Below, in pieces: positions 9,943-50,523 of a stretch of 64,000 nt of DNA (its first letter is position 1; every line of letters starts with the position of its first letter). The notes below the pieces were generated by a model, which searched no databases, was not told the origin of the DNA, and saw nothing but the letters and a program-made list of their open reading frames with translations. Made by a program: the position numbers and the translations under genes. The DNA is from a phage. The DNA lies in NCBI GenBank assembly GCA_012401045.1, contig GCA_012401045.1_4704.2, one strand, 5' to 3'.

Positions 9943-10056
9943 GCTATGATAATCCTTCTTCGATACCTTCTGAACCACGGGTTCAGAATGCGAAGCTGAA
10001 GCCATACTTCAGCGTTATTTTCTATATCGTTATTTAAATCAGTAGGAGATTACAGC

Positions 10057-20458: not shown

Positions 20459-23056
20459 TTATAACGTGACTGTACCTAATTTGGTTGTCTTATTGAGATT
20501 AATGACAGAGATCTGGGTATCGCTGGTCGTAATCGTTCCGATATTAACGCGCTGTCCTTTATCATCTTCTTGCTTGTAGATGGTTAACTCCAGTTCTAAC
20601 TGGTCGCCATTAGGAACAACGGAAACGTACCATGTTTTATTACCTGGTGAACTATTATAGTCTTTTAGGTTATAATGGCCTTTAGGTAAGGTCATGGCCT
20701 TACCGGCAAACAAACATGAAATGTCCTCGTTGATATAAACGTCGAAACCGGAAGAAGCGATGACTGTTGAGGCCATTATTCGAGACGCGACGATACCACG
20801 ATTATAGTCGTCGATTGTGGTACCTATGACATTGAATACTTGCCCCCCGTTACCCATAATGGTCGATTCGCTAGTGTTTACGTAGCCGATACCCCAAGTC
20901 GGATGAATGTTCCAGCGGTACCCACTGTTTTGTAAATACGTATACAAGTCTTCATAGGCCGCATTCACCCAACTACCATCACTTTTTCGTCCAGCCCTAA
21001 ATTGGAATGTGTTGCTATTTCCAGATGTTCCTCGGCCAAGAGGGACATGTCCCGCCACCAACCAACCATCTGTACTTTGCATATACGCGAACGAACCGTA
21101 CGCTCTGTTATCGGCCCAAATATTCACGGTATCAACACGTTCAACGTAGGCGATCACCTTTTGTACGCCGGTTATAGCGATTGAACCCTTGCGTGCCGAC
21201 ACATTAACTTCAGCAATTACGACACCCATTTTCCGCTGGCTGCTGTTAAATCCCAATACGACCATTAAACACGGTGCGTTTGTTGTTTCTGGAGGAATCG
21301 TTATCGATTGTTTCCAGTCGGTGATTCCGCTGAGTTTCGTTCCAGTATATGCGTTCCAGACGGTTTGTCCAGCCGATTTCAGATTCTGTTCAGAAATAGA
21401 AATGGCCTCGCCCTCAGGGATTAACGTGTCGTAATTGAGACCAATGTTGCTGGATAGACGAAGGTCGTTTAAGTAAGATCCGCTGAGTGTGACGTTACCG
21501 TTACGATAAATTGTCAAGAATGGCGCAGCCAGGGAGTTTAATACCGTAAAGTTACTCGATGGCATGAAACCATAGACATCGATGCCATTACCGTGGTAAT
21601 GGTAGTTTGTCCAACTACCTTGATAACTTACGGTACGTGCATCGTAGTGGCCTTGTCCAAGACCGCTGCTGGATAACGTGTATATCTTGGTTGCTGATAG
21701 AAATGCGAGATATCCATGCGCTGCCAGAGCTCCAACTACCCTGTCTTTTATCTTTAACCAAGCTGAAGTATACAACGTACTGTCGGGATTCATTTTGGCT
21801 ATTTCATCGTAAGCTGTGCCTGCGAAGTTTCCGATAGTGTACGTACGTATATCCGGCTGTCCGTTATTGTCGTTCTGTACAGCAATTACTTGCCCAGAAT
21901 CATTGATATCGATATTACCGATACAGTTGTGAGCCCCCCACACCCAATATCCATCTTTATAATTGGATTCTCCTTGTGTAAATGTCGACGGTCCTCGCCA
22001 CGCGATGCCGTTCGATTCGGCGTAGTAGGTAGCTTGTCCCGATCCTGGATTCATGGCGTATCTGTTATTGGTCGGGTCAAAATCGATGTAAAAATGATGC
22101 ATTCCTTGACGTTGACGGTTGTCCCGATCATTTGTCCACCACGACGAACCGACCAGAATTCGCGCCTTACCATTTTTTACAGTGGACCATAAACGTATTG
22201 CGGCGCGCCAGACGATTTGACCGATCCCGTTGGACGGGAAACTATTCGTACTGATGCTGTTGCAGACAACGAGCTCGCTGCTGTTGTTTATTTGAGTCCC
22301 TTCAATTGTAACGCCGTTTATGTTAGTAATCAGTGTTGCCGATACACTACCCCCTGTAGGGGCGATAGAGGAACGTTGAACGGTGTAAATTTTTAGTGAT
22401 AATTTATAGCCGCTCCGAATAGCTATACCAATGTAAATAGTTCCGTTAATTTCCCAACAACAAACATCGGGCATTGTTTCTTTGAAATCGGATAAAGCAC
22501 CGTCGATATACATCGCAACGTGTTTACTGGCGTCGAATGTGCCGTCCGTTAACGCGATGAACATTTTGGCATTATTACCGTTGATATCAGCCGCTAATCC
22601 GAGTAGTATGTTGTTCTGATGACAGTAGATGGCTTTAGGTGCTAGATCCAACATAGCTGGTTGGTACTGTCGGCTTGTTGGTATTACGCTAGTAACTGCA
22701 CCATTCTGATCCGTTTTACAAATAACGTAATATACACCGTGTATGATGCTGTTTGTCGCTGACCTCAGTAGGACGATCGTCCCGTCAGATTCACGACATA
22801 TACCGTAATGGCGATAGTCGGTGATTAAACCGATAGCGCCATCGGCCGAACCTTCGATTGCCAGAGGAAAATAACTTTGGTCCCCAACCTGTTCGATATC
22901 GGTTGCGCCAATATCGATGTATTTTTCCATCTCAGTGTTGAACTCAGCGGTACTGTAGGCACCGAGATCGCTCGCCTTTAGTCCCGTTGGGTTGTCACGA
23001 CTGGCGATACGCGTAGTAACGCTACTCACCAGTTCGCTGAACTTTTTCATTGTCAT
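20459..23056 (-). CDS. tail fibre or baseplate-associated protein (865 aa)
   Basis: Embedded in fibre module; N-terminus shares a SEL...DNP...A(A/S) motif with the two downstream small proteins. Confidence 0.5.
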   Translation of the reverse strand: MTMKKFSELVSSVTTRIASRDNPTGLKASDLGAYSTAEFNTEMEKYIDIGATDIEQVGDQSYFPLAIEGSADGAIGLITDYRHYGICRESDGTIVLLRSATNSIIHGVYYVICKTDQNGAVTSVIPTSRQYQPAMLDLAPKAIYCHQNNILLGLAADINGNNAKMFIALTDGTFDASKHVAMYIDGALSDFKETMPDVCCWEINGTIYIGIAIRSGYKLSLKIYTVQRSSIAPTGGSVSATLITNINGVTIEGTQINNSSELVVCNSISTNSFPSNGIGQIVWRAAIRLWSTVKNGKARILVGSSWWTNDRDNRQRQGMHHFYIDFDPTNNRYAMNPGSGQATYYAESNGIAWRGPSTFTQGESNYKDGYWVWGAHNCIGNIDINDSGQVIAVQNDNNGQPDIRTYTIGNFAGTAYDEIAKMNPDSTLYTSAWLKIKDRVVGALAAHGYLAFLSATKIYTLSSSGLGQGHYDARTVSYQGSWTNYHYHGNGIDVYGFMPSSNFTVLNSLAAPFLTIYRNGNVTLSGSYLNDLRLSSNIGLNYDTLIPEGEAISISEQNLKSAGQTVWNAYTGTKLSGITDWKQSITIPPETTNAPCLMVVLGFNSSQRKMGVVIAEVNVSARKGSIAITGVQKVIAYVERVDTVNIWADNRAYGSFAYMQSTDGWLVAGHVPLGRGTSGNSNTFQFRAGRKSDGSWVNAAYEDLYTYLQNSGYRWNIHPTWGIGYVNTSESTIMGNGGQVFNVIGTTIDDYNRGIVASRIMASTVIASSGFDVYINEDISCLFAGKAMTLPKGHYNLKDYNSSPGNKTWYVSVVPNGDQLELELTIYKQEDDKGQRVNIGTITTSDTQISVINLNKTTKLGTVTL

Positions 23057-30399: not shown

Positions 30400-31335
30400 T
30401 TAGCCTTGTTCTTCTGGAGAACGACCCTGGAGGCTTGCGGTATGTCCGTCGACGTTGTAATAGAAAATCAATGGACCGCCAACGGCAGTACAGTAGTTTT
30501 CATCCAGACTGATCTCGATACCGTATTGGTAACCTGCTCTTGCTGGAATACGTCCGCCTAACTCACCGTTGAAAGCCACTTTAGCATTATACAGGTTATA
30601 CGGTGCGACATTGTCGTCTAATACCCAACGATCGGTAGTCATTTCAGCCAGAAGATCGGCAACCACCACATCGCTAATAACTGTACCTGTTACCAGCGAA
30701 GCCAGCAGTTCACCGTAATCAGAGGTATCACGACTGTAACTGTAAATCTCACCGCTAGCGCGTACGCCTTGACCAAAGAACTTAAGACCATCCAGCTCCT
30801 TGATCGCGATAATATCATCAAGATTCGGTACACGCGACTTCATCAAGATACGAACGCTCCCCGTCCAAGCCAGGCAGTTAGATGCGACACGAAGCAATTG
30901 TCCGTTAACAGTATCCCAGTTAAGTTCGTCGTTGACGATTTCTTCCGCGGTAAGACCAAGACCGAAACGTTCTTTGATGATAGGCCAGATATCACGCATC
31001 TTGGCGGCGTCTGGCGCATCGATAAGAATAGGCGCTACGTTACGCAGATACGCACCGATGTTAATACGGTCGTAATACAGTGTCGTCGAACCTTCGTAAT
31101 CGTCTAACTCGGTAAGCTTAGCGGTTGCTGTCGCCGTAATCTGGGTGTCGCGCTCATAGGCGCTTTGGTTGGTGGTTGGTGTTCCTAAAACCAATAATTC
31201 AGGGGTTAGGATATGCTCTCCGTTCTGAGGTGGGTTATCGTGGTTGATAAGACCATACACGAGATCGGATGAGGGTAAAGAGACGTCGACCGGGTAAAGT
31301 TCGGTGTCGTCAATAGTTGTTACCGTATCACTCAC
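30400..31335 (-). CDS. paralogous virion-type protein family member (311 aa)
   Basis: Contains LYYDRINIGAYL ... ERFGLGL ... CLAWTGSVRI family domain; GTG start with GAGGAGG SD. Confidence 0.5.
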   Translation of the reverse strand: MSDTVTTIDDTELYPVDVSLPSSDLVYGLINHDNPPQNGEHILTPELLVLGTPTTNQSAYERDTQITATATAKLTELDDYEGSTTLYYDRINIGAYLRNVAPILIDAPDAAKMRDIWPIIKERFGLGLTAEEIVNDELNWDTVNGQLLRVASNCLAWTGSVRILMKSRVPNLDDIIAIKELDGLKFFGQGVRASGEIYSYSRDTSDYGELLASLVTGTVISDVVVADLLAEMTTDRWVLDDNVAPYNLYNAKVAFNGELGGRIPARAGYQYGIEISLDENYCTAVGGPLIFYYNVDGHTASLQGRSPEEQG

Positions 31336-31394
31336 GGTGACCTCCTCGCCAGGAATTAGATAAAAAAGACTTTACGATTTGCTGCGCTATCACG

Positions 31395-33875
31395 TTAAAC
31401 GTCCTCGATAGGCAAAGGTTTAACAATCAAACGATTGAGCGGATTCGATAGACGCATACTGATAGGCTTATACGCAACATGATTCGTCTCACTTAGAGCC
31501 ACTGATCTGAAACGACCGTTCAACTGTTTGTAAATCGGTTCTATCCAGAGACCTCGAAGATCACGTTTACGGAAACGTTGTTCGAACGGTTTGATTGGGG
31601 TTACGGTTAACCCACGCAACGACTCTGACGGTAAACGCTCACGAAGGTCGCGTGGTGCCCGACCTGGGAACGGTGCAAGCCACAAACCATCGAGCGGATT
31701 TTTACGGAAACGCAACGAGACAGGATCGCTAATGACTTGTGCCCAATATTGCGTACTGAATCGAACCGTTTGGGTATTCTCGTAACCGCTACAATCACAC
31801 CAGGTTGGTTTCGGAGGCGCTTCCAAACTTTCAACCGCTGATTCACGCCAGTTCGTCATCGGGTTGTTATCATGCACGAATTTGATAACTTCCGTAGCCT
31901 GGTTATCCGTATCATGAACGTTTGCCTGTGCCCAGTCTTCCCACAGTTCTTCACTACCACTTACTAAACTCGAACCGAGACGAACGGCGATTTTGTTTAG
32001 TGGTTTGATTGGGTCACTGTTGATTGTCTGGATAAAATGGATGGTGTAACTGCTCAATGTCTTAAGCAGCTGCAGCATTCCGTATTGAATATCCTTAAGA
32101 CTGGTGACATCTTCCAAATCCTGGCCGGTGGCCTTTGTGAAGATATCGAGAGCCAGAATACCCGCCTCTTCTTGACTGATTGCGTCAAGCTCCCAATCCA
32201 TCGATAAGAACCATTCCTTGTAAAGCTGTCCAATACCGAAGTCGACACCAACATCCATGTAGAAGTTTTCAACGATGGCTTCAGCCATGCCTCGAGCTTG
32301 ATAATGTTCTTGGAGCTGATACATGAACTGATGACGACGCCAGCCCTGGTAGATCTCGGTAACGGCGCTCAGAAACTCTTCAGTACTGACGACAGCACGC
32401 AGCGTCACTTGCTTATCCAAACACCACCAGATCAGTTTATCGGGAATGATAGCAGGATCGGTAATGCTACGGAGATGGTCGAATGTCGGTAGCGTTAACA
32501 CCCTGACGTGGTTAGCATGGATCTTAGGTACTTCAATCAGCGTCATGCCCATCGAATAGTTCAGCAAATACAAGAACAGCTTGTAGGCATCTTTCATCGA
32601 CATCGTCATGGTATCACCCGTCACCGGGTTGGTTGTCGTTAACCGTGACTGATACATGCCTATTGCGCTAAGATGAATCCATTCATTCAGCAGGAAATCA
32701 TACTTAGGATACAATTCACTGTCTGTAAGGTCTTCGGCTTCACTTTCCAACACCTTGGTCGTTAAGGTATTGTTGTCATGCATCGACATTTTCTCTATCG
32801 TGCGGTTAAGCTCGGTATAATACTCCGCTTCGTTATCCCGCGCTAGAGGGAACTGTTGCTGCATCACGGTGGTGACCTTACGTCTTACCGTGCCATTACC
32901 GACGATCTCTTGAAGGTTAAGCGGTTTACGCTCCATGTAAACTGCGGGTTTTAACGTCTGGGGTATCTCGGAAGCGTCTTGTTTGATCGAGAACGCACCG
33001 ATTGGAATCCCACGATCGGTTAATACCTTTTGAATGAGCTTATCGTAGTTTTCCGTTCTGCCCATGTTTCTTTCAACGTAAGCGATGTTACGATAGAACC
33101 AGAGCATTTGGGATTCGGTCATGTACCGCTTGAATCGATCAAGGCCTTGATGGCTTGCCAGATAACTCCAGATATGGAAGCTATGGGCATAATGGGTATG
33201 ACAGTTTTCCCAACGAATACCTTTTATCATCTCAGGTATTTGTGTGAATAGGATGGCGTATAGCGCAGGCCAATGAAGCATATCGACGCTCTCGTATGCC
33301 GGATGTTCCCAGCGTCTGAAGTAATCGTCGATTTCTTGCTGTAAACGTGGAATAAGATTGGCCTCGCGTGACTCAACCTCTTGTCTATCGTACCAGAGAA
33401 TCTCATGATTGCGTGCCGCAATTGCTTTCTCGATATCGATGGGGTTAAGGATACCCAAGATCAACATACGTTGTTCCGGGTACCGCGCAATTAAACGATT
33501 GAAATAATCTCCGCCATACGCGTATTCCCTTGCCGTCATGCGATGCCGTAACATGTTTTCCTTGGTGAACTCGATCTCTTCGAGCGTATCCAGGGAATTT
33601 ACGGTCATCATTGTCTGACAAGGATGATACTCGCCAGCGAGATTCATGTAGTATAACCACGTGCGTGGGTCGTCCCCGACGGCCATCTGGTAGACTTCGG
33701 AAACCTTGAGGTTTAACCGTTCTGCCGTGATGTCGCTTTTAATAATCAGGGTGTCCGTTAGACGCTGCACGCTTTCCGAATAAAGCTGATAGTCAGTGTT
33801 GGACACGATCGGTCCTCCAAGGAGCCAGTGTAAATGAACGATATAAATAAAGGGCGCGTCGCCCTCGAACGTCAA
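31395..33875 (-). CDS. large hypothetical protein (about 803-826 aa) with C-terminal RFRK...GLW repeats
   Basis: Track start is TTG at 33875; a GTG at 33806 with GGAGGA SD is the more likely start; internal repeat RFRKNPLDGLWLAPFP / RFRKRDLRGLWIEPIY. Confidence 0.5.
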   Translation of the reverse strand: MTFEGDAPFIYIVHLHWLLGGPIVSNTDYQLYSESVQRLTDTLIIKSDITAERLNLKVSEVYQMAVGDDPRTWLYYMNLAGEYHPCQTMMTVNSLDTLEEIEFTKENMLRHRMTAREYAYGGDYFNRLIARYPEQRMLILGILNPIDIEKAIAARNHEILWYDRQEVESREANLIPRLQQEIDDYFRRWEHPAYESVDMLHWPALYAILFTQIPEMIKGIRWENCHTHYAHSFHIWSYLASHQGLDRFKRYMTESQMLWFYRNIAYVERNMGRTENYDKLIQKVLTDRGIPIGAFSIKQDASEIPQTLKPAVYMERKPLNLQEIVGNGTVRRKVTTVMQQQFPLARDNEAEYYTELNRTIEKMSMHDNNTLTTKVLESEAEDLTDSELYPKYDFLLNEWIHLSAIGMYQSRLTTTNPVTGDTMTMSMKDAYKLFLYLLNYSMGMTLIEVPKIHANHVRVLTLPTFDHLRSITDPAIIPDKLIWWCLDKQVTLRAVVSTEEFLSAVTEIYQGWRRHQFMYQLQEHYQARGMAEAIVENFYMDVGVDFGIGQLYKEWFLSMDWELDAISQEEAGILALDIFTKATGQDLEDVTSLKDIQYGMLQLLKTLSSYTIHFIQTINSDPIKPLNKIAVRLGSSLVSGSEELWEDWAQANVHDTDNQATEVIKFVHDNNPMTNWRESAVESLEAPPKPTWCDCSGYENTQTVRFSTQYWAQVISDPVSLRFRKNPLDGLWLAPFPGRAPRDLRERLPSESLRGLTVTPIKPFEQRFRKRDLRGLWIEPIYKQLNGRFRSVALSETNHVAYKPISMRLSNPLNRLIVKPLPIEDV

Positions 33876-36743
33876 ATGAGTAATAATGACGTTGCGAAGG
33901 CACTCATGAACAAATTTGTCGCTCCTGCTCCGCAGTCACGTCTTTATAATACACGTGATGCGGAAGGAGCGAACGGTCGTTTCGGGTTAGTTGTTCCCGA
34001 CCAAATGACGATGAACACGGTTACGCGTGCGACCGCGACAAACATCGAGGATAATAAAAACATCCTCGAGTTGTTCCCTGAACTTAAACGTGTGATGCAG
34101 ATCTACGTTGCCGCGTTGACGAACCCTAACGATCTTAAGACGGTCGAGATGTTTATCGATAGCGAAGATTTCCCCGGCAGAGTCGCAGAAATCGTTCAGC
34201 CGATGATCGATACCATCGACACGCATTTTAAGAATATCTATAAAATAAAGACGCTTATCCCTCGTATCATCGAAGACGTCTTCTTTATCAAGGGCAGTTA
34301 TAACTTCGTTGTTCTGCCGGAAAGCACGCTCGACCGCGCCATTAATGGTAACGGTCAACTGAAACTTGAAGAATACGGATTTAAAGACAACCATTTTGCA
34401 AGTTGGGGGCTTCTAGGTAACGACAGTCGCAAACGCCACGAAAATCAATTACCTGCGACGGTTTCGATGGAAGATTATTTCTCGGGTGTTAATGAAACCA
34501 TACCGTACGATCCTGTTGTTCGCATAGACAGCATCAAGTTTACCAATACCCTGCTTCGCGATAAGGACGGTAAATTCATTGAAGCGAAGATCGATATTCC
34601 GGATATGGTTACGGTTGTCGATAACCCAGACATCCTCCGCATGCCTATTCTGCATCAACGTCGAGCAGCGACAGCAGTGCAGCGTGCGTTACGCGCAAAC
34701 ACGTTAGGAGGTAGTGGTTTGGTAACGCTGTCAGGCGATCCGACCCTAACCGCTAACCGACGTGAGCTGTCGCAAGAACAGGTTAACGAGATCTGGAATA
34801 AGCTCAACATCCAGCGCCACACCAAGGTATCGCCCGTTTACGCGCTGGCAACCCCAGATACGCTTGATCGTCAAAGCGTTGGCCATCCTGGCGTGATGCA
34901 TGTACCACCTGAGGCATTAGAACCCGTACATGCGCCCGGTGATCCTGAGAACCATATCGGGTATTTGGTTCAGTTGGATGAGTTTGGTTATCCAGTACGT
35001 TTGGTTGAAGATGCGGCGTATTACAAGCAGTTGGAAGGTCGGTTGTCGAAGATCACCGCAGATATCGCAGGTACGTCAAGCAACGGCATGGCGAGCGAGA
35101 TGATTGGTGCAGCCAAGAACATGATCCAGGGTACGTCATGTAATCAGGTAGACATGTCGGCCTTCGTATCATCGTACGAATCGCTGATGCAACGTTACAT
35201 TGTCGAACGTATCGTTAACGGTTATCTTGGCAGTGCGGTGGAGATCGGTGCGACATCATCGTTTTATCTGTCGATGCTTGCTCGTAGCCTCGCTCACAAG
35301 CAGACCCGTGTTTTGTTTATTCCTCGAGAGATGGTGACTTACATCGCTTATGAATACAACAAATACGGTATCGGTCGTTCGCTGCTTGAAAGTACGAAGA
35401 TGATCTCATCGCAACGAGCCATGCTCATGGTTCAAGAACTGATGGCGAAAATCAAAAGTTCGTTGAACTATACGACGCTAAGCGTAATGCTTGAAGACAC
35501 CGACAGAAACCCGGTCGATACCGTCGAACAAGCGCTGCATAGTTTCGCTCGTGTCTACCAGTCTGGTTTCCCTCTGGGTGAAACTAACCCGATGGATATC
35601 ATCAACGCGTACGAACGAAGCTCGATTCGATTGAAGGTTGAGGGGAATAACCCACGCTTCCCGAAATTGAATACAGACGTCAGTGTTGAGCAGCGTAACT
35701 ATCAGTCTCCTGATAATGAGCTGATGGATCGTTACCGTCGTGACCATTTCATGGGCTTGGGTGTGTCTCCGGAGATTATCGATACTTCCTACCAATCTGA
35801 ATTCGCAGCTTCTGTGATTACAGCTAACGCGATGCAAGAGAAACAGTTCACGGTTTGTCGTGAGGTGATCACGAATGGGTTATCGGACCACATCAAGAAA
35901 TATACGGCATACAGTCCCGTGTTGTTGACGTCGTTACGAAACACGGTTCGTGCGAACATGTCTAAGCTCTCCCAGGCACAATTGAAGCAGCTTTTTGGTA
36001 GCGATTTCGAAAACGGTGTTATCCGTAACGTTAACGCCTATCAGGAGATTGACGACCAATCAGCAACAATGGATCTGGATTACACTAAACCAGAAGTCCA
36101 GGAAGTTATTGCCGATGCTTATGTGTCCATGTTCTTAAACAGCCTGCGTGTGCGTTTACCGGATAGCAATGCCCGTCGCCTTGAAGATCAGGTACGTGAA
36201 TATAATCAGTACAAGGAAGCGATTACTGCGCAACTTGATGATTATTTAACGCCTGATTACGTCATGGGTCTGGGTGGGGTTGATGAAACAACGCTGCAGA
36301 TGATCCGCGCATGCATTATTGGTACCGCGATGCGTACGTGGGCAAAAGAGAACAACTTCAATCAGGAGCTGGCTGATCTCTTCAGTCTTGACGATAAGAA
36401 GAATGCCGTGCAAGATTGGAAACGTATGTCCATGGAACATATTGAAGTCATGGGTAAATGCATGGGTGATTTTGCATTGTATATTCAGAATCTGACGAAG
36501 AAGATTGAAGAGAAGATGGGAGCTCAAGCACAGGACGGTAGCGTTTCATCTGATGGTTCGTGGTCATCCGATTCAAGTAGCGATACCGGTTCTTCTGATG
36601 ACTTCGGTGGCGGTGACGATTTCGGAGATACCGATTTCGATACCGAAACGATGGAGGAAACCTCAACAGAAGAAACAACCACATCTGAGGATACGACGAC
36701 CGACACAACGTCAGAAGACGATACTTCAGGTGACATTGTCTAA
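33834..36743 (+). CDS. portal protein candidate (969 aa) with acidic Ser/Thr/Asp-rich C-terminal tail
   Basis: Size and highly acidic low-complexity C-terminus typical of portals; ATG with AAGGAG SD; not confirmed by search. Confidence 0.35.
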   Translation: MNDINKGRVALERQMSNNDVAKALMNKFVAPAPQSRLYNTRDAEGANGRFGLVVPDQMTMNTVTRATATNIEDNKNILELFPELKRVMQIYVAALTNPNDLKTVEMFIDSEDFPGRVAEIVQPMIDTIDTHFKNIYKIKTLIPRIIEDVFFIKGSYNFVVLPESTLDRAINGNGQLKLEEYGFKDNHFASWGLLGNDSRKRHENQLPATVSMEDYFSGVNETIPYDPVVRIDSIKFTNTLLRDKDGKFIEAKIDIPDMVTVVDNPDILRMPILHQRRAATAVQRALRANTLGGSGLVTLSGDPTLTANRRELSQEQVNEIWNKLNIQRHTKVSPVYALATPDTLDRQSVGHPGVMHVPPEALEPVHAPGDPENHIGYLVQLDEFGYPVRLVEDAAYYKQLEGRLSKITADIAGTSSNGMASEMIGAAKNMIQGTSCNQVDMSAFVSSYESLMQRYIVERIVNGYLGSAVEIGATSSFYLSMLARSLAHKQTRVLFIPREMVTYIAYEYNKYGIGRSLLESTKMISSQRAMLMVQELMAKIKSSLNYTTLSVMLEDTDRNPVDTVEQALHSFARVYQSGFPLGETNPMDIINAYERSSIRLKVEGNNPRFPKLNTDVSVEQRNYQSPDNELMDRYRRDHFMGLGVSPEIIDTSYQSEFAASVITANAMQEKQFTVCREVITNGLSDHIKKYTAYSPVLLTSLRNTVRANMSKLSQAQLKQLFGSDFENGVIRNVNAYQEIDDQSATMDLDYTKPEVQEVIADAYVSMFLNSLRVRLPDSNARRLEDQVREYNQYKEAITAQLDDYLTPDYVMGLGGVDETTLQMIRACIIGTAMRTWAKENNFNQELADLFSLDDKKNAVQDWKRMSMEHIEVMGKCMGDFALYIQNLTKKIEEKMGAQAQDGSVSSDGSWSSDSSSDTGSSDDFGGGDDFGDTDFDTETMEETSTEETTTSEDTTTDTTSEDDTSGDIV

Positions 36744-36773
36744 ACGGATGTAAAAAAAATAACACATAGTTAA

Positions 36774-36809
36774 CCTTCTCCCCAACCCGATGAGGGAAGG
36801 GGAGAAGGG
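36774..36809 (+). terminator. conserved GC-rich hairpin family variant followed by T-rich tract
   Basis: CCTTCTCCCC-AACCC-GATGA-GGGAA-GGGGAGAAGG then CTATGCGCTATTTAATTTATT. Confidence 0.5.
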
Positions 36810-36828
36810 CTATGCGCTATTTAATTTA

Positions 36829-37101
36829 TTACGAGGTTAACCACGATTCAATTGTGGTGAGTTTGCTTCTCAGTACGCGCCAACTAGGGTGTGGTGGGAT
36901 CACAGCGCCTTTGTCGATTACGGTTAGCTGAACCTGGTACTTCTGCTGCATACGCGCTACCGTGTCGCTTATCGAGAGGAAAAGCTGGTAACGTTCATAT
37001 GCCGTCAGTTCACTGTCCTGTTGAACTGCGTTGGCCGCTAACGTAATTTCGCGTAAGTCCTTTGCATCCACAGAGACGGTAATGAGTTTATATTGACTCA
37101 T
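36829..37101 (-). CDS. hypothetical small protein (90 aa)
   Basis: ORF convergent with the portal candidate. Confidence 0.4.
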   Translation of the reverse strand: MSQYKLITVSVDAKDLREITLAANAVQQDSELTAYERYQLFLSISDTVARMQQKYQVQLTVIDKGAVIPPHPSWRVLRSKLTTIESWLTS

Positions 37102-43266: not shown

Positions 43267-43365
43267 CTGACTTATGTATCACGGTGCCGGATGAATGTCC
43301 GGTGCAATGAAACCATCCGCAACGTTGTCATCAAGAATATCATCCAACGAAGCAGCTACGGTAGT

Positions 43366-45588
43366 TCAGTTAGTCTGAACCGGCAGCTTGATGTTTTCAG
43401 TGTAGACCTTACGCAGGTTCACAACGTTAATCAGACCCAGCAGCGGGCAGTTGTTAACGAAGCGGCAGCGCGGCTGAACCATGGTTTCTTTAGAAACCTG
43501 ACCGTTACGGGTAACCTGAGCAACAGATACCAGTTCCGGTACGTACAGGAACATACCGAAGGTCAGCGGATCCGGAGAACCCTGGATACCACGAGACAGG
43601 GTCACGAAGATCTTATCGCGCAGCATGACGTTCGGGTTATCTACAACCACGAAGTTGAAGCTTACACCGACGGTACGGAAATCGCCATCGGTCTGCAGGA
43701 ACTGCGGGATGTAGTTGTCAGTTGCTACTACGCAACGCGGTTTCTCATCGGCGTTGGAAGACAGCAGCTGCAGAGCTGGCTGATAACCAGACTCGGAGTA
43801 CATGCGGTATGCCATCTCACGAATCACGTTCATGATCGCAGCAGACACTTCAGCACGACGTTCTGCAGTGGTGGTACCCTGAACAGATTTCTCCAGGTCC
43901 AGATTGATTTCTTCGAACCACGGACGGATCAGGTAACGACCGAAACCTTCGATCTGGATGTCACCGAACTGACGGAAGCGAGAGGTCGCAACCGCTTTCA
44001 GTGCGTCTTTGTAGCTGAACAGTTTCTCAACCATCAGGTTGTCGAAACGTGCGTTAGCAGCTTGGATCAGAACGTCCAGGTCAGCAGCGTTTTCTTCCCA
44101 ATCCAGCGGACGAGGAATGGAGAACGGAGCCAGCAGGCCGATTGCGTAACGTTCTTGCTTCATGTTGAAGTCAAGGTGCTTACCGCGTTCACGACGGTTG
44201 CTGTTGTTACGGCGGATACGCAGTTCGTAACCAACCAGTTTGAAGCTCAGGTCTTCAGCCAGTTGTTTGAACTCTTCGCTCTTACGCGGTTGTTCGATGT
44301 TGTCCTGATCAACCAGGCGATACAGTTCAGCGTTAGCGCCGTTAACACGCAGACCCGCTTTCTCTACGTTGGAAGAACCGTAAACTTCGATCGCCAGCTG
44401 AGCAGCAGATTTCGCATCGATGATGTCCTGCAGCGCTTCGGCTTTCGCACCTTTAACGTCTTTGGTGTTCTCATCAACGAAGATGGAGTGGGTGTCGAAC
44501 GCCAGGGTCATTTTGCGGAAGTCGCCTTCCAGGGATTTCTGGAAACCGTTGGTGATCAGACCAGATACGTCGAACGGTACGTAAGAGGTTTTGCTGTGCT
44601 TGGTAGATTTGATTTCCACCAGGATTTTGGTCAGCGTGATCTGGGCGTCCAGCGCGTCGGTGTTGTCGCTATAACCGTTAGCCAGGATGCTATCGTCTTC
44701 AGCGATACCGATCATGTCGATCAGTTTATCAACAGCCAGGTAAGACGTTTTATAAGTTACGCCTTTAATTTCGATGTCGCGCGGAGCAACGATAGCTTTG
44801 TCAACGAAGTACTGCGCGTTAGCATCGTCAGCACGATAGATCGGATGCAGATCGGTCACGTCGTTGGACAGAACGTCGTTGTACATGAACGCATCCAGCA
44901 GCGGACGACGTACCCAATCAGCCGGAGTACCGTCGGCGTTACGACGCAGGTGGTTGAACACCAGCGGACGACGGAAAGATACGTCGTAACCGATCTGGTT
45001 CGGAGCCAGAACGATGGTGTTGTACAGTTCGTTACCCATGCGGCTCAGACGAGAAGCCTTCACGTTGAACACAACGGAGTACGGCATCATGTCACGCAGT
45101 TCTTTCTGGTCGTAGGACAGCTGAACCAGTTCTTCAGATTCGCAACCGCAGGAATCAGCAGCCATCATGACGAAGTTAGAGCTGTCAACTTCACGGCCAG
45201 ACGGAGTGGTGCTGATGTTCATGGAACGTGCTTGTTTAGCATATTCCACCGGGTTACCATGAGCCAGCATGATCAGTGCTGCTGCACGAGCCTGCTGTGC
45301 GTTCATGGTGAACAGCTGTTCTTCAATACGCTGCTTCTCTTCCGGAGTGGTGGTTTCGAAGCCCAGCATGGACAGAACCGGTTCTTCTGCTTTACGGATG
45401 TCGCTGCTGAAGCTCTTAACATCCATTTCGTTAACCAGTTTGTCCATGGATTTGAAATCAACCTTAGAAGCAGATTCCATAGACAGGAAGGTGTTCTCCA
45501 GACCTTTGTCTGCTGGTTTGCTACCATTAGCGGTCAGGAACTGGCGAGTGGCCGCGACCTGTTGGCTAAGAAGGGTTTTATCATTCAT
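43366..45588 (-). CDS. major capsid protein candidate (740 aa)
   Basis: Extreme highly-expressed-gene codon bias, capsid-like size for a jumbo phage, AAGGA SD, own upstream AT-rich region; could alternatively be another very abundant virion protein such as sheath. Confidence 0.5.
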   Translation of the reverse strand: MNDKTLLSQQVAATRQFLTANGSKPADKGLENTFLSMESASKVDFKSMDKLVNEMDVKSFSSDIRKAEEPVLSMLGFETTTPEEKQRIEEQLFTMNAQQARAAALIMLAHGNPVEYAKQARSMNISTTPSGREVDSSNFVMMAADSCGCESEELVQLSYDQKELRDMMPYSVVFNVKASRLSRMGNELYNTIVLAPNQIGYDVSFRRPLVFNHLRRNADGTPADWVRRPLLDAFMYNDVLSNDVTDLHPIYRADDANAQYFVDKAIVAPRDIEIKGVTYKTSYLAVDKLIDMIGIAEDDSILANGYSDNTDALDAQITLTKILVEIKSTKHSKTSYVPFDVSGLITNGFQKSLEGDFRKMTLAFDTHSIFVDENTKDVKGAKAEALQDIIDAKSAAQLAIEVYGSSNVEKAGLRVNGANAELYRLVDQDNIEQPRKSEEFKQLAEDLSFKLVGYELRIRRNNSNRRERGKHLDFNMKQERYAIGLLAPFSIPRPLDWEENAADLDVLIQAANARFDNLMVEKLFSYKDALKAVATSRFRQFGDIQIEGFGRYLIRPWFEEINLDLEKSVQGTTTAERRAEVSAAIMNVIREMAYRMYSESGYQPALQLLSSNADEKPRCVVATDNYIPQFLQTDGDFRTVGVSFNFVVVDNPNVMLRDKIFVTLSRGIQGSPDPLTFGMFLYVPELVSVAQVTRNGQVSKETMVQPRCRFVNNCPLLGLINVVNLRKVYTENIKLPVQTN

Positions 45589-45737
45589 TGAAAGTATCCT
45601 TTACAGAATTAACTTATATAAGTCGGTCGATAGACCATAGCGTACACGCGTGCATGCGCCACTATAGTATCAGTAAACACTTACCGTTATTGAGGTCGTG
45701 ATACAACACTAAAAATGCCGCATAACTTTTCCCTACG

Positions 45738-46358
45738 TCATAAACGACGCAGGCGATAATGGATGGAACGATTGGTGCAATATGAACGGAACAGCGGCAA
45801 TTGCGCAACTTCCGCAAGACTCATATTAATTCGCAGGTGTTCAATAACGGCGCTGTAGTTATCAGCAATACGATCGCTCAATAACTCTTCTGCCAATAAA
45901 GGAAGACAATCGACAACAATCGCGATCACATCCTCATTAACATAACGCACCCGAACACTCAACGGACGTTTGTCTGGGCTGTAAGTTGGATCCGCCAAAC
46001 GACGTTCAATATCACGCGGATAGCTCGTCAGTAAATGGTAATAACCATTGTCATAACGATTGATGTACTCACACAGCACATCAACATTCTTCTCTGGCGG
46101 CAAACCTGTTTCGTCATAGTGATACGCAAACATACCACCAAGCAGGTTGTTAAGATGAACCGCAGGGTTCGCTTGTTCGTGTTCTTTCGTGATGAAGAAA
46201 GGCACATTTTGAGCTGCGAAATAAAAACCTACATCATTGGGCGATAGTATGCCGAAAAGACTTTTAGGGTCTAATAACACCTGTAAGTCATCACGCGCAT
46301 TTCGAATAATCGCGTGTTCTACCCAATTCGGAACGACGAGATATCGGAGTTCCTTCAT
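45738..46358 (-). CDS. hypothetical protein (206 aa)
   Basis: ATG with AGAGGT SD; head-to-head with plus-strand gene 40 nt away. Confidence 0.5.
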   Translation of the reverse strand: MKELRYLVVPNWVEHAIIRNARDDLQVLLDPKSLFGILSPNDVGFYFAAQNVPFFITKEHEQANPAVHLNNLLGGMFAYHYDETGLPPEKNVDVLCEYINRYDNGYYHLLTSYPRDIERRLADPTYSPDKRPLSVRVRYVNEDVIAIVVDCLPLLAEELLSDRIADNYSAVIEHLRINMSLAEVAQLPLFRSYCTNRSIHYRLRRL

Positions 46359-46397
46359 TATGATTACCTCTTTGCAAGTATCGAAAGGATTGAGTCG

Positions 46398-48008
46398 ATG
46401 GACCCAAAACAGATAGCCATTAAGATTATTACGTTACTGTTTCGTAATGCACAATTGAACCATCCCGATCCCAGTACGATCGAACATGTTAAATCCGTCT
46501 TAGATAAAGTCGAACCCCCGAAAAACCATCTCGCTACAGACGTAGATAGAGAGGTTTTCAACAACCTGATGAATACCATTCATTGGATGTTGGAACAACC
46601 ATTATCGGAACCTTTCGATAAACAACAGTTGTTACAAAGGATACGTTTGGATTGCCTTGAACAAAGCAATCTTTACGAGATTCTTGCCGACGGACTGTAC
46701 GATATCGAAGACGACGCTCATATCAGTAAGGTCTGTTCACTCTATTACAACGAATTACGTAATCTGATTACCCGTCGTCGTGTTTTCGAAACCTTTAGAA
46801 ACACGTACATGGATATCAGTAACGGGCGACTTGGGGATAAAGAATTTTTCGATGCAATGGCGAATCTGAAATTATCGCTAGACAGTATCGAAATGGATAC
46901 CGAAAATCCCGAAGAGATGTCGTGTATGATTGACGGCTTTATCGCTGACAGCGAAGACGATATCGAGAAAGTCGAACGTATGTTCGTCAAAGCGATGGAA
47001 CGTAACAGTCCTGAAGGTGGATTTGTAACCGGCTGGCAAGGCTTTAATAAAATGTTGGGGTCGGTCGGCGTTTTACGTCGCGGTACCTTAGGACTGATCG
47101 GTGCAATGCAGCACCGGAACAAGTCAGGCGTGTTGTTAAAACTGTTCACACATCTGGCATTGTACAACAAACCCCATTTCTTTTTCCCGGAGCGAGCAAA
47201 GAAAGCATTACTGATTCATTTGTCGACAGAAAACGAAGTGGAAGAAAACACGCTTCAGATATACAAGAACATGCGAGAACAGGAAACAGGCGAATATGTC
47301 GATATTCGTAAGATTGACCCTCGCGAGGCATCACGTTATGTGTTGAAGGTGTTCAACGATGCGGGTTTCTCTGTTTGTATGCGTCGTGTTGATGGGATGA
47401 GTTATAAACAACTCGCTAATCTCATCGACCATTTCGAACGCATGGGTTATGAAGTCATGGCGTTGTTCATTGACTATCTGAAAATGTTCTCATCGGAAGG
47501 GTTGGATAGAAATGGACCGACCGGCGCATGGCTCCAAGAACTCTTCAACAAAGTACGTAACCTCTGCAGCGTCAAACGTATTTTAGGTATGACTGTACAC
47601 CAGCTGTCATCCGATGCGAAGATGCGTGCGCGTGATGGTAACGATGAAGAGTTTGTTGACCAGGTCGCAGGTTTAAGTTACTGGGATGGTTGTAAAGGGA
47701 TCGACCGTGAGATTGACCTTGAAGTGATTGTTGATATCGTTAAGGAGCCGGGCAAACGTCAAAGCTGGCAGGTCTTTGCGTTAGGGAAAGACCGTCAACC
47801 GGATAACGGTTCAACGAAACCTGAAGACAAACATTTCGCGATGCCATTCCAAACCATCGGGATGCTTCCTGATGATTACGGTAAGAAAGCAGTATATTGC
47901 CGCAAGGTTGGCGGACAACCTGTCTCCGAGGGAGGTAAAGGTCCGTGGAACAAGTTCGATGAAAACGCAGCACCGAGTAATGAATTACAATTTGATTTAG
48001 AATTTTAA
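46398..48008 (+). CDS. hypothetical protein (about 536 aa)
   Basis: ATG 46398 with AAAGGA SD (track start is GTG 46314 overlapping neighbour); followed by A13 tract and conserved hairpin. Confidence 0.5.
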   Translation: MDPKQIAIKIITLLFRNAQLNHPDPSTIEHVKSVLDKVEPPKNHLATDVDREVFNNLMNTIHWMLEQPLSEPFDKQQLLQRIRLDCLEQSNLYEILADGLYDIEDDAHISKVCSLYYNELRNLITRRRVFETFRNTYMDISNGRLGDKEFFDAMANLKLSLDSIEMDTENPEEMSCMIDGFIADSEDDIEKVERMFVKAMERNSPEGGFVTGWQGFNKMLGSVGVLRRGTLGLIGAMQHRNKSGVLLKLFTHLALYNKPHFFFPERAKKALLIHLSTENEVEENTLQIYKNMREQETGEYVDIRKIDPREASRYVLKVFNDAGFSVCMRRVDGMSYKQLANLIDHFERMGYEVMALFIDYLKMFSSEGLDRNGPTGAWLQELFNKVRNLCSVKRILGMTVHQLSSDAKMRARDGNDEEFVDQVAGLSYWDGCKGIDREIDLEVIVDIVKEPGKRQSWQVFALGKDRQPDNGSTKPEDKHFAMPFQTIGMLPDDYGKKAVYCRKVGGQPVSEGGKGPWNKFDENAAPSNELQFDLEF

Positions 48009-49459: not shown

Positions 49460-49535
49460 CGTATTTTACCTTTCTATGTTAGGTGGATTTCGGATAGAAG
49501 AATCAATGCATAAACTAATTTAAGTTTGTTAAGGT

Positions 49536-50438
49536 TTACTTAGCCTTTGAGTTATACGGACTAACATGTTGTTGTACTCGTTGGATTGTATCGTAGTACG
49601 GGTTAAGTTGATTGAACATGTTGTTGTGTGGGTGATAGCCATATGGCGCATTTTGCCTTGTTGGTGAGAAACCTTGTTGAGAAGGACGGTTTGAATTAAC
49701 CGCGAGTACGTAGTAAACCAAATTTTGGCGGTCGAACGTTCCTTCGTTTTTGAAGGTGTCGGCGTAGGCGCTTACCGCTGGAGCGAGCCTATCACCATCG
49801 GTTGTAATGATTGTGCCATCGGGATAAACTTCCCGAACGACGCACCATGTTCCGATGAGAACATCTTTGGGTGATGTATTACCGTATCCGGTTGTAACGG
49901 TAAGGTAAGTATCGAACCCTTCAGAACAACAAGGATGACGATAGATGGGTCCTGTCATTTCCAGTCTATCGGTGTCACCGCATTTCTCTATTGAGAGCGA
50001 TGATGTGTCGGTTTTGAAATTGTCAAATTCTTTCTTTAAGTCGATTACGGGTTCTTTCGTATAGTACTTCTTGATTGCTTTGACGTAAAGATCGGGAACG
50101 GTTGTCAGCAATCCGTTATACCTGATTCTCAGGTTTTCGAGTAATCCAAAGATGCTCGCGCATGCCTGTTCGCGAGGTTTTGTAAGATAAGAGATCCCCC
50201 CAGGAACGCTGGGATCTTTGAGAAAGAAGATTGCGTTATTGTCGTTGTGCGATGCGTTGAAGAAAACGATTGATTCGATATATACGGAGCATAGGCTGTC
50301 GTTGGCGTCGTCAGATAACACCCAGATGCACTCATCGGTCGTCTTGTTTAAAAGTTCTGTTTTGTCGACCAAACGTTGTTTCATTGCGAGGAAATGTGCC
50401 TGTTGTTCAGCGGATAATTCACGATAAATGGTGGTCAT
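49536..50438 (-). CDS. hypothetical protein (300 aa), paralog of 50524-51306
   Basis: Shared motif IY-x-HP-x-C ... YLT-x-T-x-G ... REVYPDG-x-I; ATG with AAGGAG SD. Confidence 0.5.
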   Translation of the reverse strand: MTTIYRELSAEQQAHFLAMKQRLVDKTELLNKTTDECIWVLSDDANDSLCSVYIESIVFFNASHNDNNAIFFLKDPSVPGGISYLTKPREQACASIFGLLENLRIRYNGLLTTVPDLYVKAIKKYYTKEPVIDLKKEFDNFKTDTSSLSIEKCGDTDRLEMTGPIYRHPCCSEGFDTYLTVTTGYGNTSPKDVLIGTWCVVREVYPDGTIITTDGDRLAPAVSAYADTFKNEGTFDRQNLVYYVLAVNSNRPSQQGFSPTRQNAPYGYHPHNNMFNQLNPYYDTIQRVQQHVSPYNSKAK

Positions 50439-50523
50439 GTTGAGCTCCTTGATTACGATAAGGATGATTGCGGTTTTGTGGTGTTGGTAGGGCCCTAAAC
50501 AAATGAACCCTACTAATATTAGG

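Follow-up and report, generated by a model that had tools for sequence, protein, structure and literature searches.

How can two genes be transcribed away from each other when only 27 nt separate their start codons? The question is raised by a stretch of phage DNA of 64,000 nt, the whole of which we call the window, in which a baseplate (upper) wedge gene and the portal gene lie head to head. The window belongs to a Goslar-like Escherichia jumbo phage, with 97.8% identity to vB_EcoM_Goslar (Goslar), and Goslar-like phages are nucleus-forming (Chimalliviridae) jumbo phages. An earlier note on this DNA had drawn attention to this pair and to a second one arranged in the same way, and had argued that promoters must lie inside the neighbouring coding sequence and that the leaders must be antisense to each other, with reciprocal regulation as one possible consequence. 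Where, then, do the two transcripts begin, and does their overlap serve a purpose?

Results

The wedge and portal genes start back to back

Both proteins are homologous to solved structures, one as a gp128-type baseplate wedge protein and the other as a Chimalliviridae portal protein (Table 1), with roles taken from PMC13250141 and the Goslar cryo-EM preprint. The wedge protein matched PHROG 3222 (E 1e-209, from residue and profile position 1), the PDB chains 11lx_Bh (803 aa, over residues 1–802) and 36za_sR, and PHIKZ128 (9xqs_C, E 2e-110), and it aligned from residue 1 with phiKZ gp128 and 201phi2-1 gp213 (MSNTDY / MSNVYF) at 32–36% identity. For the portal protein, matches were obtained to PHROG 3004 (E 6e-161), to the 969-aa chain of 'Portal Protein gp36' (PDB 11ed_J, residues 1–969), to another chain from residue 5, and to PHIKZ129 (9xpe_M, E 1e-75); the Goslar cryo-EM preprint models gp36 residues 5–923. 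The wedge gene heads a five-gene minus-strand block that reaches 27716, and the next gene after the portal gene is convergent to it.

Table 1. Features of the two divergent junctions, in window coordinates; the SD sites were read from the sequence.
Feature	Position	Strand	Details
Baseplate (upper) wedge gene	31395..33806	-	GTG start, 803 aa; homologue of Goslar gp35, phiKZ gp128 and 201phi2-1 gp213
Invariant block	33543..33881		338 nt, no variation among four Goslar-like genomes
Wedge/portal spacer	33807..33833		27 nt between start codons, GATCGGTCCTCCAAGGAGCCAGTGTAA
Wedge SD GGAGGA (plus-strand TCCTCC)	33814..33819	-	6 nt 5' of GTG
Portal SD AAGGAG	33819..33824	+	9 nt 5' of ATG
In-frame TAA	33831..33833	+	directly 5' of portal ATG (33834–33836)
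Portal gene	33834..36743	+	ATG start, 969 aa; homologue of Goslar gp36 and phiKZ gp129
Terminator-like element	33837..33866	-	inside portal codons 2–11; hairpin and T/A-rich tail
gp042-like gene	45738..46358	-	206 aa, ATG 46358; directly upstream of major capsid gene
Second-pair spacer	46359..46397		39 nt
DnaB-like replicative helicase (Goslar gp043)	46398..48008	+	536 aa; PF20307 E 1e-120, PHROG 3213 from residue 1

The two start codons proposed in the earlier note were found in place, each with its SD sequence, and both are also the starts annotated in the Goslar GenBank record. The portal gene can start no further upstream than 33834, because an in-frame TAA directly precedes its ATG. The wedge GTG, which reads as CAC at 33804–33806 on the plus strand, is in frame with the open reading frame 31395..33875, and its 803-aa product is matched from residue 1; the TTG at 33875, which had been offered as another wedge start, is not needed. 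Both starts are firm, on the strength of the in-frame TAA, of cryo-EM from portal residue 5 and of N-terminal homology. One could still suppose that the tight spacing is an annotation artefact, with one true start further downstream and a larger intergenic region, as the wedge start codon is a GTG and in-frame alternatives lie downstream, at +36 nt (GTG) in the wedge gene and at +42 and +72 nt (ATG) in the portal gene. This is very improbable, however, given that the cryo-EM model of gp36 starts at residue 5, that phiKZ gp128 and 201phi2-1 gp213 begin with residues that align to wedge residues 2–6, that the wedge protein matches its PHROG profile from position 1, that each proposed start has a strong SD at the proper distance, and that dozens of independently assembled relatives are also tightly spaced.

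The portal SD abuts the wedge SD, with A33819 common to both, and the opposed sites are spanned by TCCTCCAAGGAG at 33813–33824. The near-palindrome described earlier is thus present; as a separate feature it dissolves into the two opposed SDs, without an RNA-structure signal. Folding of the overlap gave no significant structure (z = -1.68 and -0.13), and the Rfam search returned only a chance CRISPR-DR match (E 0.45). The same near-palindrome or abutting SDs recur in three distant relatives (L023, L031 and L062). We conclude that the near-palindrome arises from the back-to-back placement of two ribosome-binding sites, and so from compaction, and is not a regulatory element.

The tight divergent layout is conserved

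The divergent layout of the wedge and portal genes is shared across the nucleus-forming phage family, being present in 61 of the 61 related loci that hold both. Their spacers comprise 49 distinct sequences with a median length of 40 nt (minimum 21, maximum 221), and measure 35 nt in phiKZ as well as in 201phi2-1; the 27-nt spacer of the window recurs unchanged in Goslar and two IMG/VR relatives. The description of a head-to-head pair with almost no intergenic DNA is borne out, and the tight divergent layout exceeds chance. Among the 20 divergent spacers of Goslar, 27 nt is the smallest, followed by 31, 34, 39, 54, 64 and 96–254 nt, and the other late/late divergent pairs of that phage have spacers of 54–221 nt; compaction is permitted, not required. 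A rule by which late/late pairs would be tight and early-containing pairs wide was tried and rejected: late/late spacers cover 27–221 nt and early-containing ones 31–254 nt, and the Goslar gp171/172 pair (31 nt) is tight yet reads as early.

The second pair shares the layout

The second pair, at 46358 (-) and 46398 (+), has the layout that had been attributed to it, with both ATG starts present and a 39-nt spacer. Its minus-strand member is the positional counterpart of Ea35-70 Ea357_312, to which the protein shows weak homology (E 9e-6), and probably also of phiKZ gp119 (E 0.15 against PHIKZ119). The divergence of the helicase gene from the small gene is kept in Ea35-70, with a 28-nt spacer, and in phiKZ, with one of 211 nt. 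The junction corresponds in position to the phiKZ DnaB-helicase/gp119 junction, where the helicase gene likewise faces away from a small gene on the other strand that comes just before the major capsid gene. In phiKZ, the promoter P119L lies inside the 211-nt spacer (TATG G at 117615), 47 nt before gene 119, whereas an equivalent promoter in the window would have to lie within the helicase coding sequence or very near the start codon, because the spacer is so short (39 nt, and 28 nt in Ea35-70). On the plus strand, CATTATGA, with TATG at 46359–46362, lies directly against the gp042 start codon, at a distance of 36 nt upstream from the helicase ATG, and matches, by sequence only, the phiKZ late start-site motif.

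Partners of both pairs are expressed late and together

Expression was assessed with RNA-seq data from Goslar (bioRxiv 10.1101/2023.09.20.558163), which is 97.8% identical to the window and not the window's own isolate. At 30 min, gp035 and gp036 were both abundant, with about 1500–2400 reads each. Read counts were 1477/1814/1873 in controls versus 8/12/15 in nucleus-blocked samples for gp035, and 1990/2340/2438 versus 16/7/10 for gp036. In the ChmA knockdown, gp035, gp036, gp042 and gp043 of Goslar were all down about 50–100-fold; the flanking convergent genes gp037 and gp044 were unaffected by the nucleus block. The partners of each pair fall into the same expression class with similar read density, in a Goslar library that is possibly not strand-specific. 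Both pairs consist of co-expressed, late, nucleus-dependent genes. That the wedge and portal genes are both expressed is seen in the Goslar RNA-seq and in the presence of both proteins in the virion structure. The idea of reciprocal regulation is not supported by these data, in which both partners of both pairs are co-expressed late at similar read densities.

Leaders are predicted to overlap, and a mapped phiKZ promoter lies inside the wedge gene

As the two SDs abut, the leaders would have to overlap in antisense, and promoter DNA would have to lie within the neighbour's coding sequence. A leadered portal mRNA has to start at or before about 33815 and a leadered wedge mRNA at or after about 33823, and neither the 27-nt spacer with its abutting SDs nor the 39-nt spacer of the second pair is long enough for two separate leaders and promoters. 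A start site of this kind has been mapped in phiKZ by ONT-cappable-seq: transcription from P070, a late-class promoter that ends TTTTATGA, begins at 130258 (+), a point 70 nt within gp128 and 106 nt short of the portal ATG, and yields TU100, a monocistronic unit of PHIKZ129 alone. The same phiKZ data report no TSS for PHIKZ128. At an adjacent divergent pair of phiKZ they place two overlapping starts, P072 (134420, +) and P073 (134428, -).

Invariant DNA covers the junction in six clades

The invariant block (Table 1) reaches from wedge nt 263 across the spacer to portal nt 47 and is the longest such run in 13 kb. Of the 804 third codon positions of the wedge gene 124 vary, but none of the first 87 does (hypergeometric P = 1.9e-7), and the first variable site lies 263 nt from the wedge start, compared with 8–131 nt in the other genes of the same 13 kb. 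In the phiKZ clade, for which PA7 was the only phiKZ-like relative in the IMG/VR scan, a 304-nt invariant run, the longest in 5.7 kb, contains P070 (P = 2.8e-6), and in four further sequence pairs the top-ranked invariant run maps to the junction or to wedge nt 1–140. The overlapped coding DNA thus carries extra, non-protein constraint in Goslar-like phages, in the phiKZ clade and in the four pairs. Across six independent clades, each represented by few and related genomes, the longest local invariance falls at the junction or in the first ~80–260 nt of the wedge gene, synonymous sites included.

The pairwise identity between the window and Goslar is mosaic, with identical blocks of up to 1135 nt elsewhere, and was rejected as sole evidence of conservation for that reason; an identical run of 253 nt at the second pair is unexceptional. 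Other constraints, for instance translation initiation or recombination mosaicism, could account for part of the invariant block. A search for a hidden plus-strand small ORF under the block found only ORFs of 25–32 aa with TTG starts, and no conserved motif was visible in the portal 5' end across distant relatives.

Promoter signals near the junctions

In phiKZ, the late promoter is T(-3)ATG(+1), without a conserved upstream element. The window position orthologous to P070 is 33736–33747, where the DNA reads TTTTAATAAT, and no TATG occurs in the 536 nt that precede the portal ATG or in the 693 nt that precede the wedge GTG; the late-promoter signal that Goslar uses at this locus would accordingly differ from the phiKZ TATG. 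Among 53 relatives, TAT[GA] was found near the junction at 22 and 33 loci, compared with about 48% expected by chance, and was not enriched. No sigma-70 promoter was detected in 33300–34300 (500 nt either side). A k-mer enrichment on Goslar upstream regions recovered the early-promoter motif and TTATGC, and no late-promoter motif; TTATGC was rejected as a stand-alone promoter, as it is the tail of intrinsic terminators. The early (virion RNA polymerase) motif of Goslar, about 25 nt long and derived from 8 intergenic sites (TTTTCACGGCTATATTACyTAgGTGA), occurs in the window only at 2503 (-) and 15035 (-), and at neither junction.

A terminator-like hairpin precedes the wedge gene

Upstream of the wedge gene, the hairpin GAGGGCG-ACG-CGCCCTT (33866–33850) is followed by a T/A-rich run ending in TATATCGTT (33845–33837), 39 nt before the GTG. 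The same composite of hairpin and TATATCGTT occurs upstream of a divergent baseplate gene at 9995–10031 (+) of the window and upstream of chmA in Goslar, and thus before the first genes of three operons that start at divergent junctions (gp013, gp035 and chmA). The 1-kb junction region holds 3 terminator-like sites, compared with 1.1 +/- 1.0 expected. On its own, TATATCGTT has 3 exact copies in the window; it was rejected as a promoter word, with 24 one-mismatch matches versus 20.5 expected (not significant), and only the hairpin-linked subset is of interest.

The element resembles phiKZ-type intrinsic terminators, which consist of a GC hairpin and TTATKYYGT, in that 33866–33837 reads as a GC hairpin and then TTTATT-TATATCGT, and its tail shares a TAT-NN-CGT core with the Goslar terminator tail TTATGC[CT]GT. 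Unlike such terminators, it lies inside opposite-strand coding sequence, 2.98 kb from the nearest upstream same-strand gene and directly before the operon's first ribosome-binding site; its stem is short, with 5 G-C pairs (7 with wobble/A-T), and it carries TATATCG instead of the usual TTATGC. We infer that the hairpin and TATATCGTT are a candidate insulator and/or initiation region of the wedge operon.

Discussion

A probable compact bidirectional control region

We consider it likely that the junction serves two late structural transcription units as a compact, bidirectional control region, with embedded late promoters, co-expressed genes and no dedicated function of the overlap. The leftward unit would be the baseplate-wedge operon and the rightward unit the portal gene, monocistronic in the phiKZ orthologue. 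Each mRNA would start beyond the other gene's SD, giving an antisense leader overlap of at least ~10 nt, and the promoter DNA of each gene would lie inside the 5' coding sequence of the other. In the window, portal transcription probably begins inside the first ~260 nt of wedge coding sequence, and wedge transcription probably inside the first ~45 nt of portal coding sequence, on the downstream side of the 33866–33850 hairpin. Late genes would be transcribed by the phage's own non-virion RNA polymerase, which we infer to be the enzyme acting here as well; promoters could be written into codons because the phiKZ non-virion-polymerase promoter is a 4-nt TATG without -35/-10-type boxes. The nucleus-stage programme would then switch on wedge and portal together, and the antisense overlap would have no dedicated regulatory role. 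The earlier proposal of promoters in the neighbour's coding DNA and overlapping antisense leaders is thereby supported, by the abutting SDs, by the position of P070 within gp128 and by the invariant junction.

Alternative explanations

The overlap might instead be a regulatory device, in which antisense pairing of the leaders, or collision or occlusion of polymerases, sets the portal/baseplate ratio or timing. Leader overlap is unavoidable here and amounts to at least ~106 nt on the portal side in phiKZ, the layout and the underlying DNA are unusually conserved, and, as the literature has it, these phages transcribe and translate in physically separate places, so that complementary RNAs coexist in the phage nucleus. 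Yet the partners share a temporal class and have comparable read densities at 30 min, which gives no sign of mutual exclusion; neither a significant RNA structure nor an Rfam family was found; the spacer ranges from 21 to 221 nt among relatives, so that the amount of overlap is not constant; and most late/late divergent pairs of Goslar have wide spacers. We regard such a device as rather unlikely. A more elaborate version holds that the junction is a conserved Chimalliviridae cis-regulatory module, in which a ~300-nt dual-use segment, an insulating hairpin and antisense leaders couple portal and baseplate output. The segment may then comprise wedge codons 1 to ~87 and portal codons 1 to ~15 with both promoters and leaders; the hairpin, with initiation just after it, may shield the late baseplate operon from early antisense read-through; and the antisense overlap of the leaders may form inside the phage nucleus. 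We give this module little credence; if true, the hairpin with TATATCGTT would be a new promoter-proximal insulator class in the window's phage.

An explanation of the opposite kind dispenses with local embedded promoters altogether and has distant promoters or read-through supply one or both genes, the invariant block reflecting a constraint on the wedge mRNA, for example at its translation-initiation region, or diversity lowered by recombination. It fits with the lack of a recognisable promoter motif close to either start, with PHIKZ128 having no reported TSS, with the binding of ChmC to phage mRNAs near start codons, and with the mosaic identity between the window and Goslar. It is nevertheless improbable, as the phiKZ portal TSS is local, 106 nt upstream; a terminator-like hairpin 45–60 nt upstream of the wedge start, on the wedge strand, would stop long read-through; gp037, upstream on the same strand, is in another expression class than gp035; the invariance extends 263 nt into the wedge gene, against 8–131 nt for other genes in the 13 kb; and this pattern is repeated in six clades. 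Local, embedded promoters therefore remain the reading that we prefer.

Relation to known systems

The closest counterpart is phiKZ gp128/gp129 with P070, where the orthologous genes are likewise divergent, across a 35-nt spacer, and an invariant block covers the junction as it does in the window; that the portal transcript begins inside the wedge gene and is monocistronic was mapped in phiKZ and would apply to the window by analogy. The window differs in its 27-nt spacer with directly abutting SDs, in having no TATG near either start, and in its proteins, which are only ~24–33% identical to those of phiKZ.

Short control regions shared by opposed units are familiar from lambda PR/PRM and Tn10 tetA/tetR, where polymerase bound at one of the starts can affect its opposite. 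Their promoters are of the host sigma-70 type and intergenic, with a repressor bound between them, and expression is reciprocal or autoregulated. The window pair, in contrast, has no sigma-70 promoter and no room for an operator, and its partners are co-expressed in Goslar.

The wedge/portal layout is real, but already annotated and largely explained, and these findings do not overturn current understanding. In practical terms, one probably cannot freely recode, tag or interrupt the opening ~90 wedge codons and ~15 portal codons of Goslar-like and phiKZ-like phages, as any such change may disturb the opposite gene. This bears on phage engineering, N-terminal tagging, transposon and knockdown screens, and the reading of polar effects. 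Annotation rules based on sigma-70 promoters, which expect at least ~100 nt between divergent genes, do not apply to phages with their own multisubunit polymerases. To the single published phiKZ start, our comparison adds a family-wide footprint, the most invariant local DNA in six clades.

Head-to-head arrangement of the wedge and portal genes

Bases 31000–37000 of the window match Escherichia phage vB_EcoM_Goslar at 97.8% identity. Goslar is a nucleus-forming jumbo phage of the Chimalliviridae with a 237-kb genome, and the same genes, with identical starts, are annotated in its record. The plus-strand gene encodes the portal, counterpart of phiKZ gp129 and Goslar gp36 and a dodecamer in the cryo-EM studies of both phages, and the minus-strand gene encodes a baseplate wedge protein; in phiKZ, gp128 and two copies of gp87 make up a wedge heterotrimer, and Goslar gp35 belongs to the upper wedge. 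The wedge gene is the first of a five-gene minus-strand structural block that ends at an annotated terminator, while the gene 3′ of the portal is convergent.

The junction reads ...CAC(33804–06) GATCGG TCCTCC AAGGAG CCAGTGTAA ATG(33834)..., with a spacer of 27 nt and abutting Shine-Dalgarno (SD) sequences, and its near-palindrome is the look of two opposed ribosome-binding sites with nothing between them. An earlier note had described this arrangement, correctly, and both starts have external support. An in-frame TAA at 33831–33833, directly 5′ of the portal ATG, makes a start further upstream impossible; portal residues 1–969 match a 969-aa PDB chain ('Portal Protein gp36'), a second portal chain starts at residue 5, which is also where the wing domain begins in the description given by the Goslar cryo-EM preprint. 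For the wedge gene, the note's preference for GTG 33806 is upheld, since the 803-aa product matches an 803-aa PDB chain, matches PHROG 3222 from position 1 and has an N-terminus (MSNTDYQLY) that aligns with those of 201phi2-1 gp213 (MSNVYFDVY) and phiKZ gp128, making the longer TTG 33875 form unnecessary. The second divergent pair, a gp042-like gene and a DnaB-like helicase gene (gp043), proved equally sound: AGAGG lies 9 nt 5′ of the gp042 ATG and AAAGGA 8 nt 5′ of the helicase ATG, and the PHROG and Pfam matches of the helicase both begin at residue 1. This pair, too, is conserved: the same two genes lie 28 nt apart in Ea35-70, and the phiKZ counterparts, helicase and gp119, are 211 nt apart.

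Coordinates of features at and around the divergent junctions (window positions unless stated; reads as three values each for control and knockdown)
Feature	Position	Strand	Remarks
gp035 (wedge) start	33806; Goslar 33877	−	Goslar record; control 1477/1814/1873, knockdown 8/12/15
gp036 (portal) start	33834; Goslar 33905	+	Goslar record; control 1990/2340/2438, knockdown 16/7/10
gp042 start	46358	−	Goslar record; control 543/648/619, knockdown 8/9/10
gp043 (helicase) start	46398	+	Goslar record; control 1560/1953/1814, knockdown 40/18/18
Wedge SD GGAGGA	33814–19	−	adjoins portal SD
Portal SD AAGGAG	33819–24	+	adjoins wedge SD
Near-palindrome TCCTCCAAGGAG	33813–33824		
Hairpin GAGGGCG-ACG-CGCCCTT	33866–33850	−	inside portal codons 2–11
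Hairpin + TATATCGTT	9995–10031	+	upstream of baseplate gene at 10057
Hairpin + TATATCGTT	Goslar 173025	−	upstream of chmA
~25-nt motif TTTTCACGGCTATATTACyTAgGTGA	2503, 15035	−	intergenic
Same motif in Goslar	2567, 113797, 142800, 160791, 166069, 172978, 201944, 226695		
Intrinsic terminators, GC-rich hairpin + TTATGC[CT]GT	3467 (+), 51418 (−), 56723 (−)		~15 sites in Goslar
gp061/gp062 junction	Goslar 67731/67766		34 nt; homologues of phiKZ gp89/gp88; both late
gp171/gp172 junction	Goslar 155765/155797		31 nt; both early-like in RNA-seq
Segments without alignment to Goslar	49513–51301; 5486–6013; 14503–14846; 20759–22192		

Conservation of the arrangement and of the junction DNA

Relatives were represented by 58 IMG/VR loci in which the portal could be aligned, together with phiKZ, 201phi2-1 and Ea35-70. 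A wedge homologue lies on the opposite strand, head-to-head with the portal, in all loci containing both genes (61/61). When starts were picked from N-terminal alignments and SDs, the 49 distinct spacers ranged from 21 to 221 nt (median 40). Opposed SDs of the type CTCC-AA-GGAG are seen again in relatives with only ~25–30% protein identity, back-to-back examples being catAATTGTCTCCAAGGAGCTAAAatg (locus L023) and catTCTTCCTCCAAGGAGTTGTTGatg (locus L031). The divergent arrangement is thus not chance; it is ancient and constrained.

The DNA over the junction is itself unusually invariant. In a comparison of four Goslar-like genomes (the window, L005, L006 and Goslar), ~13 kb contained 861 variable sites, and no stretch free of variation was longer than the 338 nt at 33543–33881. 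This run takes in the spacer together with 263 nt of wedge and 47 nt of portal coding sequence; the first 87 third-codon positions of the wedge gene are all constant, compared with 124/804 variable overall (hypergeometric P = 1.9e-7), and in the other seven genes the first variable site lies 8–131 nt from the start. In eight phiKZ-clade genomes (95.7–100% identity), the longest run in 5.7 kb is 304 nt (P = 2.8e-6); it reaches from the 35-nt spacer 224 nt into gp128 and 44 nt into the portal gene, and a mapped transcription start site (TSS) lies inside it. Top-ranked runs also cross the junction in the Ea35-70-like pair (844 nt) and in L014/L019 (242 nt), and cover wedge nt 1–80 plus 24 nt of spacer in L030/L033 (104 nt) and wedge nt 23–140 in L047/L049 (117 nt); two further sequence pairs were identical and hence uninformative. 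These statistics come from related genomes within each clade and from blocks noticed post hoc, and the pairwise window–Goslar comparison is mosaic, with longer identical stretches away from the junction. The result is persuasive because it is repeated in six clades with the same asymmetry, extending far into the wedge gene and ~45–65 nt into the portal gene. Neither a small ORF on the plus strand, nor a signal of RNA structure, nor an Rfam family was found that would explain the block.

Probable embedded promoters and shared late expression

With starts this close, the earlier note had reasoned that promoters must lie inside the neighbouring gene, that the 5′ leaders must be mutually antisense, and that the partners might regulate each other reciprocally. 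The embedded-promoter and overlapping-leader part is sound, being logical from the sequence, observed in phiKZ and backed by sequence conservation here. The phiKZ ONT-cappable-seq supplementary tables list a late-class promoter, P070 (TSS 130258, plus strand; upstream sequence ending ...AAATTTTATGA), that gives rise to TU100, consisting of PHIKZ129 alone and ending at terminator T060. Measured against the gp128 start (130328) and the portal ATG (130364), the phiKZ portal transcript begins 70 nt inside gp128, with a 106-nt leader wholly antisense to the gp128 start; the note's inference thus has direct experimental support from the orthologous pair. The tables hold no TSS for PHIKZ128. At the next phiKZ junction, gp130/gp131, where divergent starts overlap, P072 (134420, plus) and P073 (134428, minus) cross by 9 nt, showing that overlapping divergent transcripts are present elsewhere in the phage family.

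Reciprocal regulation, on the other hand, finds no support. The supplement of the Goslar EPI-vesicle study tabulates reads at 30 min for control cells and for cells with the nuclear shell protein knocked down, which run the early programme only. Expression is seen for both ORFs of each pair. The genes gp035, gp036, gp042 and gp043 belong to the same nucleus-dependent late class; knockdown had no effect on the convergent neighbours gp037 and gp044. This shared class, together with the nearly equal read densities of gp035 and gp036, argues against reciprocal regulation of timing or on/off state. Goslar's 20 divergent junctions have spacers of 27 (wedge/portal, the tightest), 31, 34, 39, 54, 64 and then 96–254 nt, and expression class does not predict spacer length among them (late/late 27–221 nt, early-containing 31–254 nt); tight spacing is permitted, not required, by this transcription system. 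The gp061/gp062 and gp171/gp172 junctions fall outside the window; gp171 is a subunit of RNA polymerase, whereas gp172 is modelled by cryo-EM as a wedge protein, and early-like expression is odd for such a structural component.

Candidate start signals

No sigma-70-like promoter was found ≤500 nt either side of the wedge/portal junction, which fits phiKZ-like phages, whose transcription does not depend on the host. In phiKZ, the non-virion polymerase uses a late promoter that consists only of T(−3)ATG(+1), without conserved upstream sequence. The nearest TATG lies 536 nt upstream of the portal ATG on the plus strand and 693 nt upstream of the wedge GTG on the minus strand, and the start signal at this junction is not TATG. 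At the P070-orthologous site, in codons of a conserved ...IIK... motif, the window phage has CTTTTAATAATC (33736–33747, plus strand), whereas phiKZ has ATTTTATGAC. At the second pair, CATTATGA (TATG at 46359–46362) adjoins the start codon of gp042, lies 36 nt upstream of the helicase ATG and is, judged by sequence alone, a candidate match to the phiKZ late motif.

Enrichment of k-mers over Goslar upstream regions recovered the well-conserved ~25-nt motif, presumably the Goslar early promoter, whose sequence is similar to TATATTAC, the core of early (virion polymerase) promoters in phiKZ; it returned no late-promoter motif, and the enriched TTATGC turned out to be the tail of GC-hairpin terminators. 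Portal codon 4 is a rare Ile ATA (33843–33845), as is phiKZ portal codon 3 (5884–5886 of the phiKZ locus, L002), placing TATA(T/G) on the opposite strand 5–12 nt inside the portal gene. A wedge transcript could plausibly start at that distance from its gene, but this may be coincidence, 201phi2-1 being without it.

A hairpin element on the wedge side

On the minus strand, the hairpin within the portal gene leads into TTTATT and TATATCGTT (33845–33837), 39 nt before the wedge GTG. True Goslar terminators consist of a GC hairpin and TTATGC[CT]GT, a tail like the phiKZ terminator motif, 30–60 nt after a gene; the 33866–33837 element resembles them in its hairpin and TAT-NN-CGT tail, and the nearest upstream same-strand gene is 2.98 kb away. 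Two other divergent units have the same composite upstream of their first gene, and these 'orphan' elements likewise have no nearby same-strand gene to terminate; Goslar's annotators marked the one near 10008–10026 as a putative terminator. We suggest that the hairpin could stop minus-strand transcripts that read through the portal gene, since gp037, upstream on that strand, is early-class, and that the wedge operon's own start would lie just downstream of the hairpin.

The arrangement itself was already in public annotation, and the key phiKZ transcription start in a published supplement; what we add is small, namely conservation across the family, the invariant run over the junction and the orphan hairpins, none of which we found described in the literature searched on these phages.

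The TTATGC[CT]GT tails contain TATG, the phiKZ late start-site motif, 17–130 nt before the next gene, so terminator and re-initiation site may coincide there.

Outside the non-aligning segments, window–Goslar identity is mosaic, from 86% up to >1-kb blocks with zero differences. The largest non-aligning segment (49513–51301) carries two ORFs in place of Goslar's small gp047 region, 49536–50438 (300 aa) and 50524–51306 (260 aa), neither with a PHROG match. The minus-strand ORF 43366–45588 is the real major capsid gene (PHROG 3231 major head protein, E 1e-164); a 766-aa ATG-initiated plus-strand ORF (43291–45591) without a family match runs antisense over its entire length and is probably a shadow ORF from codon bias, a simple gene caller having taken the wrong strand.
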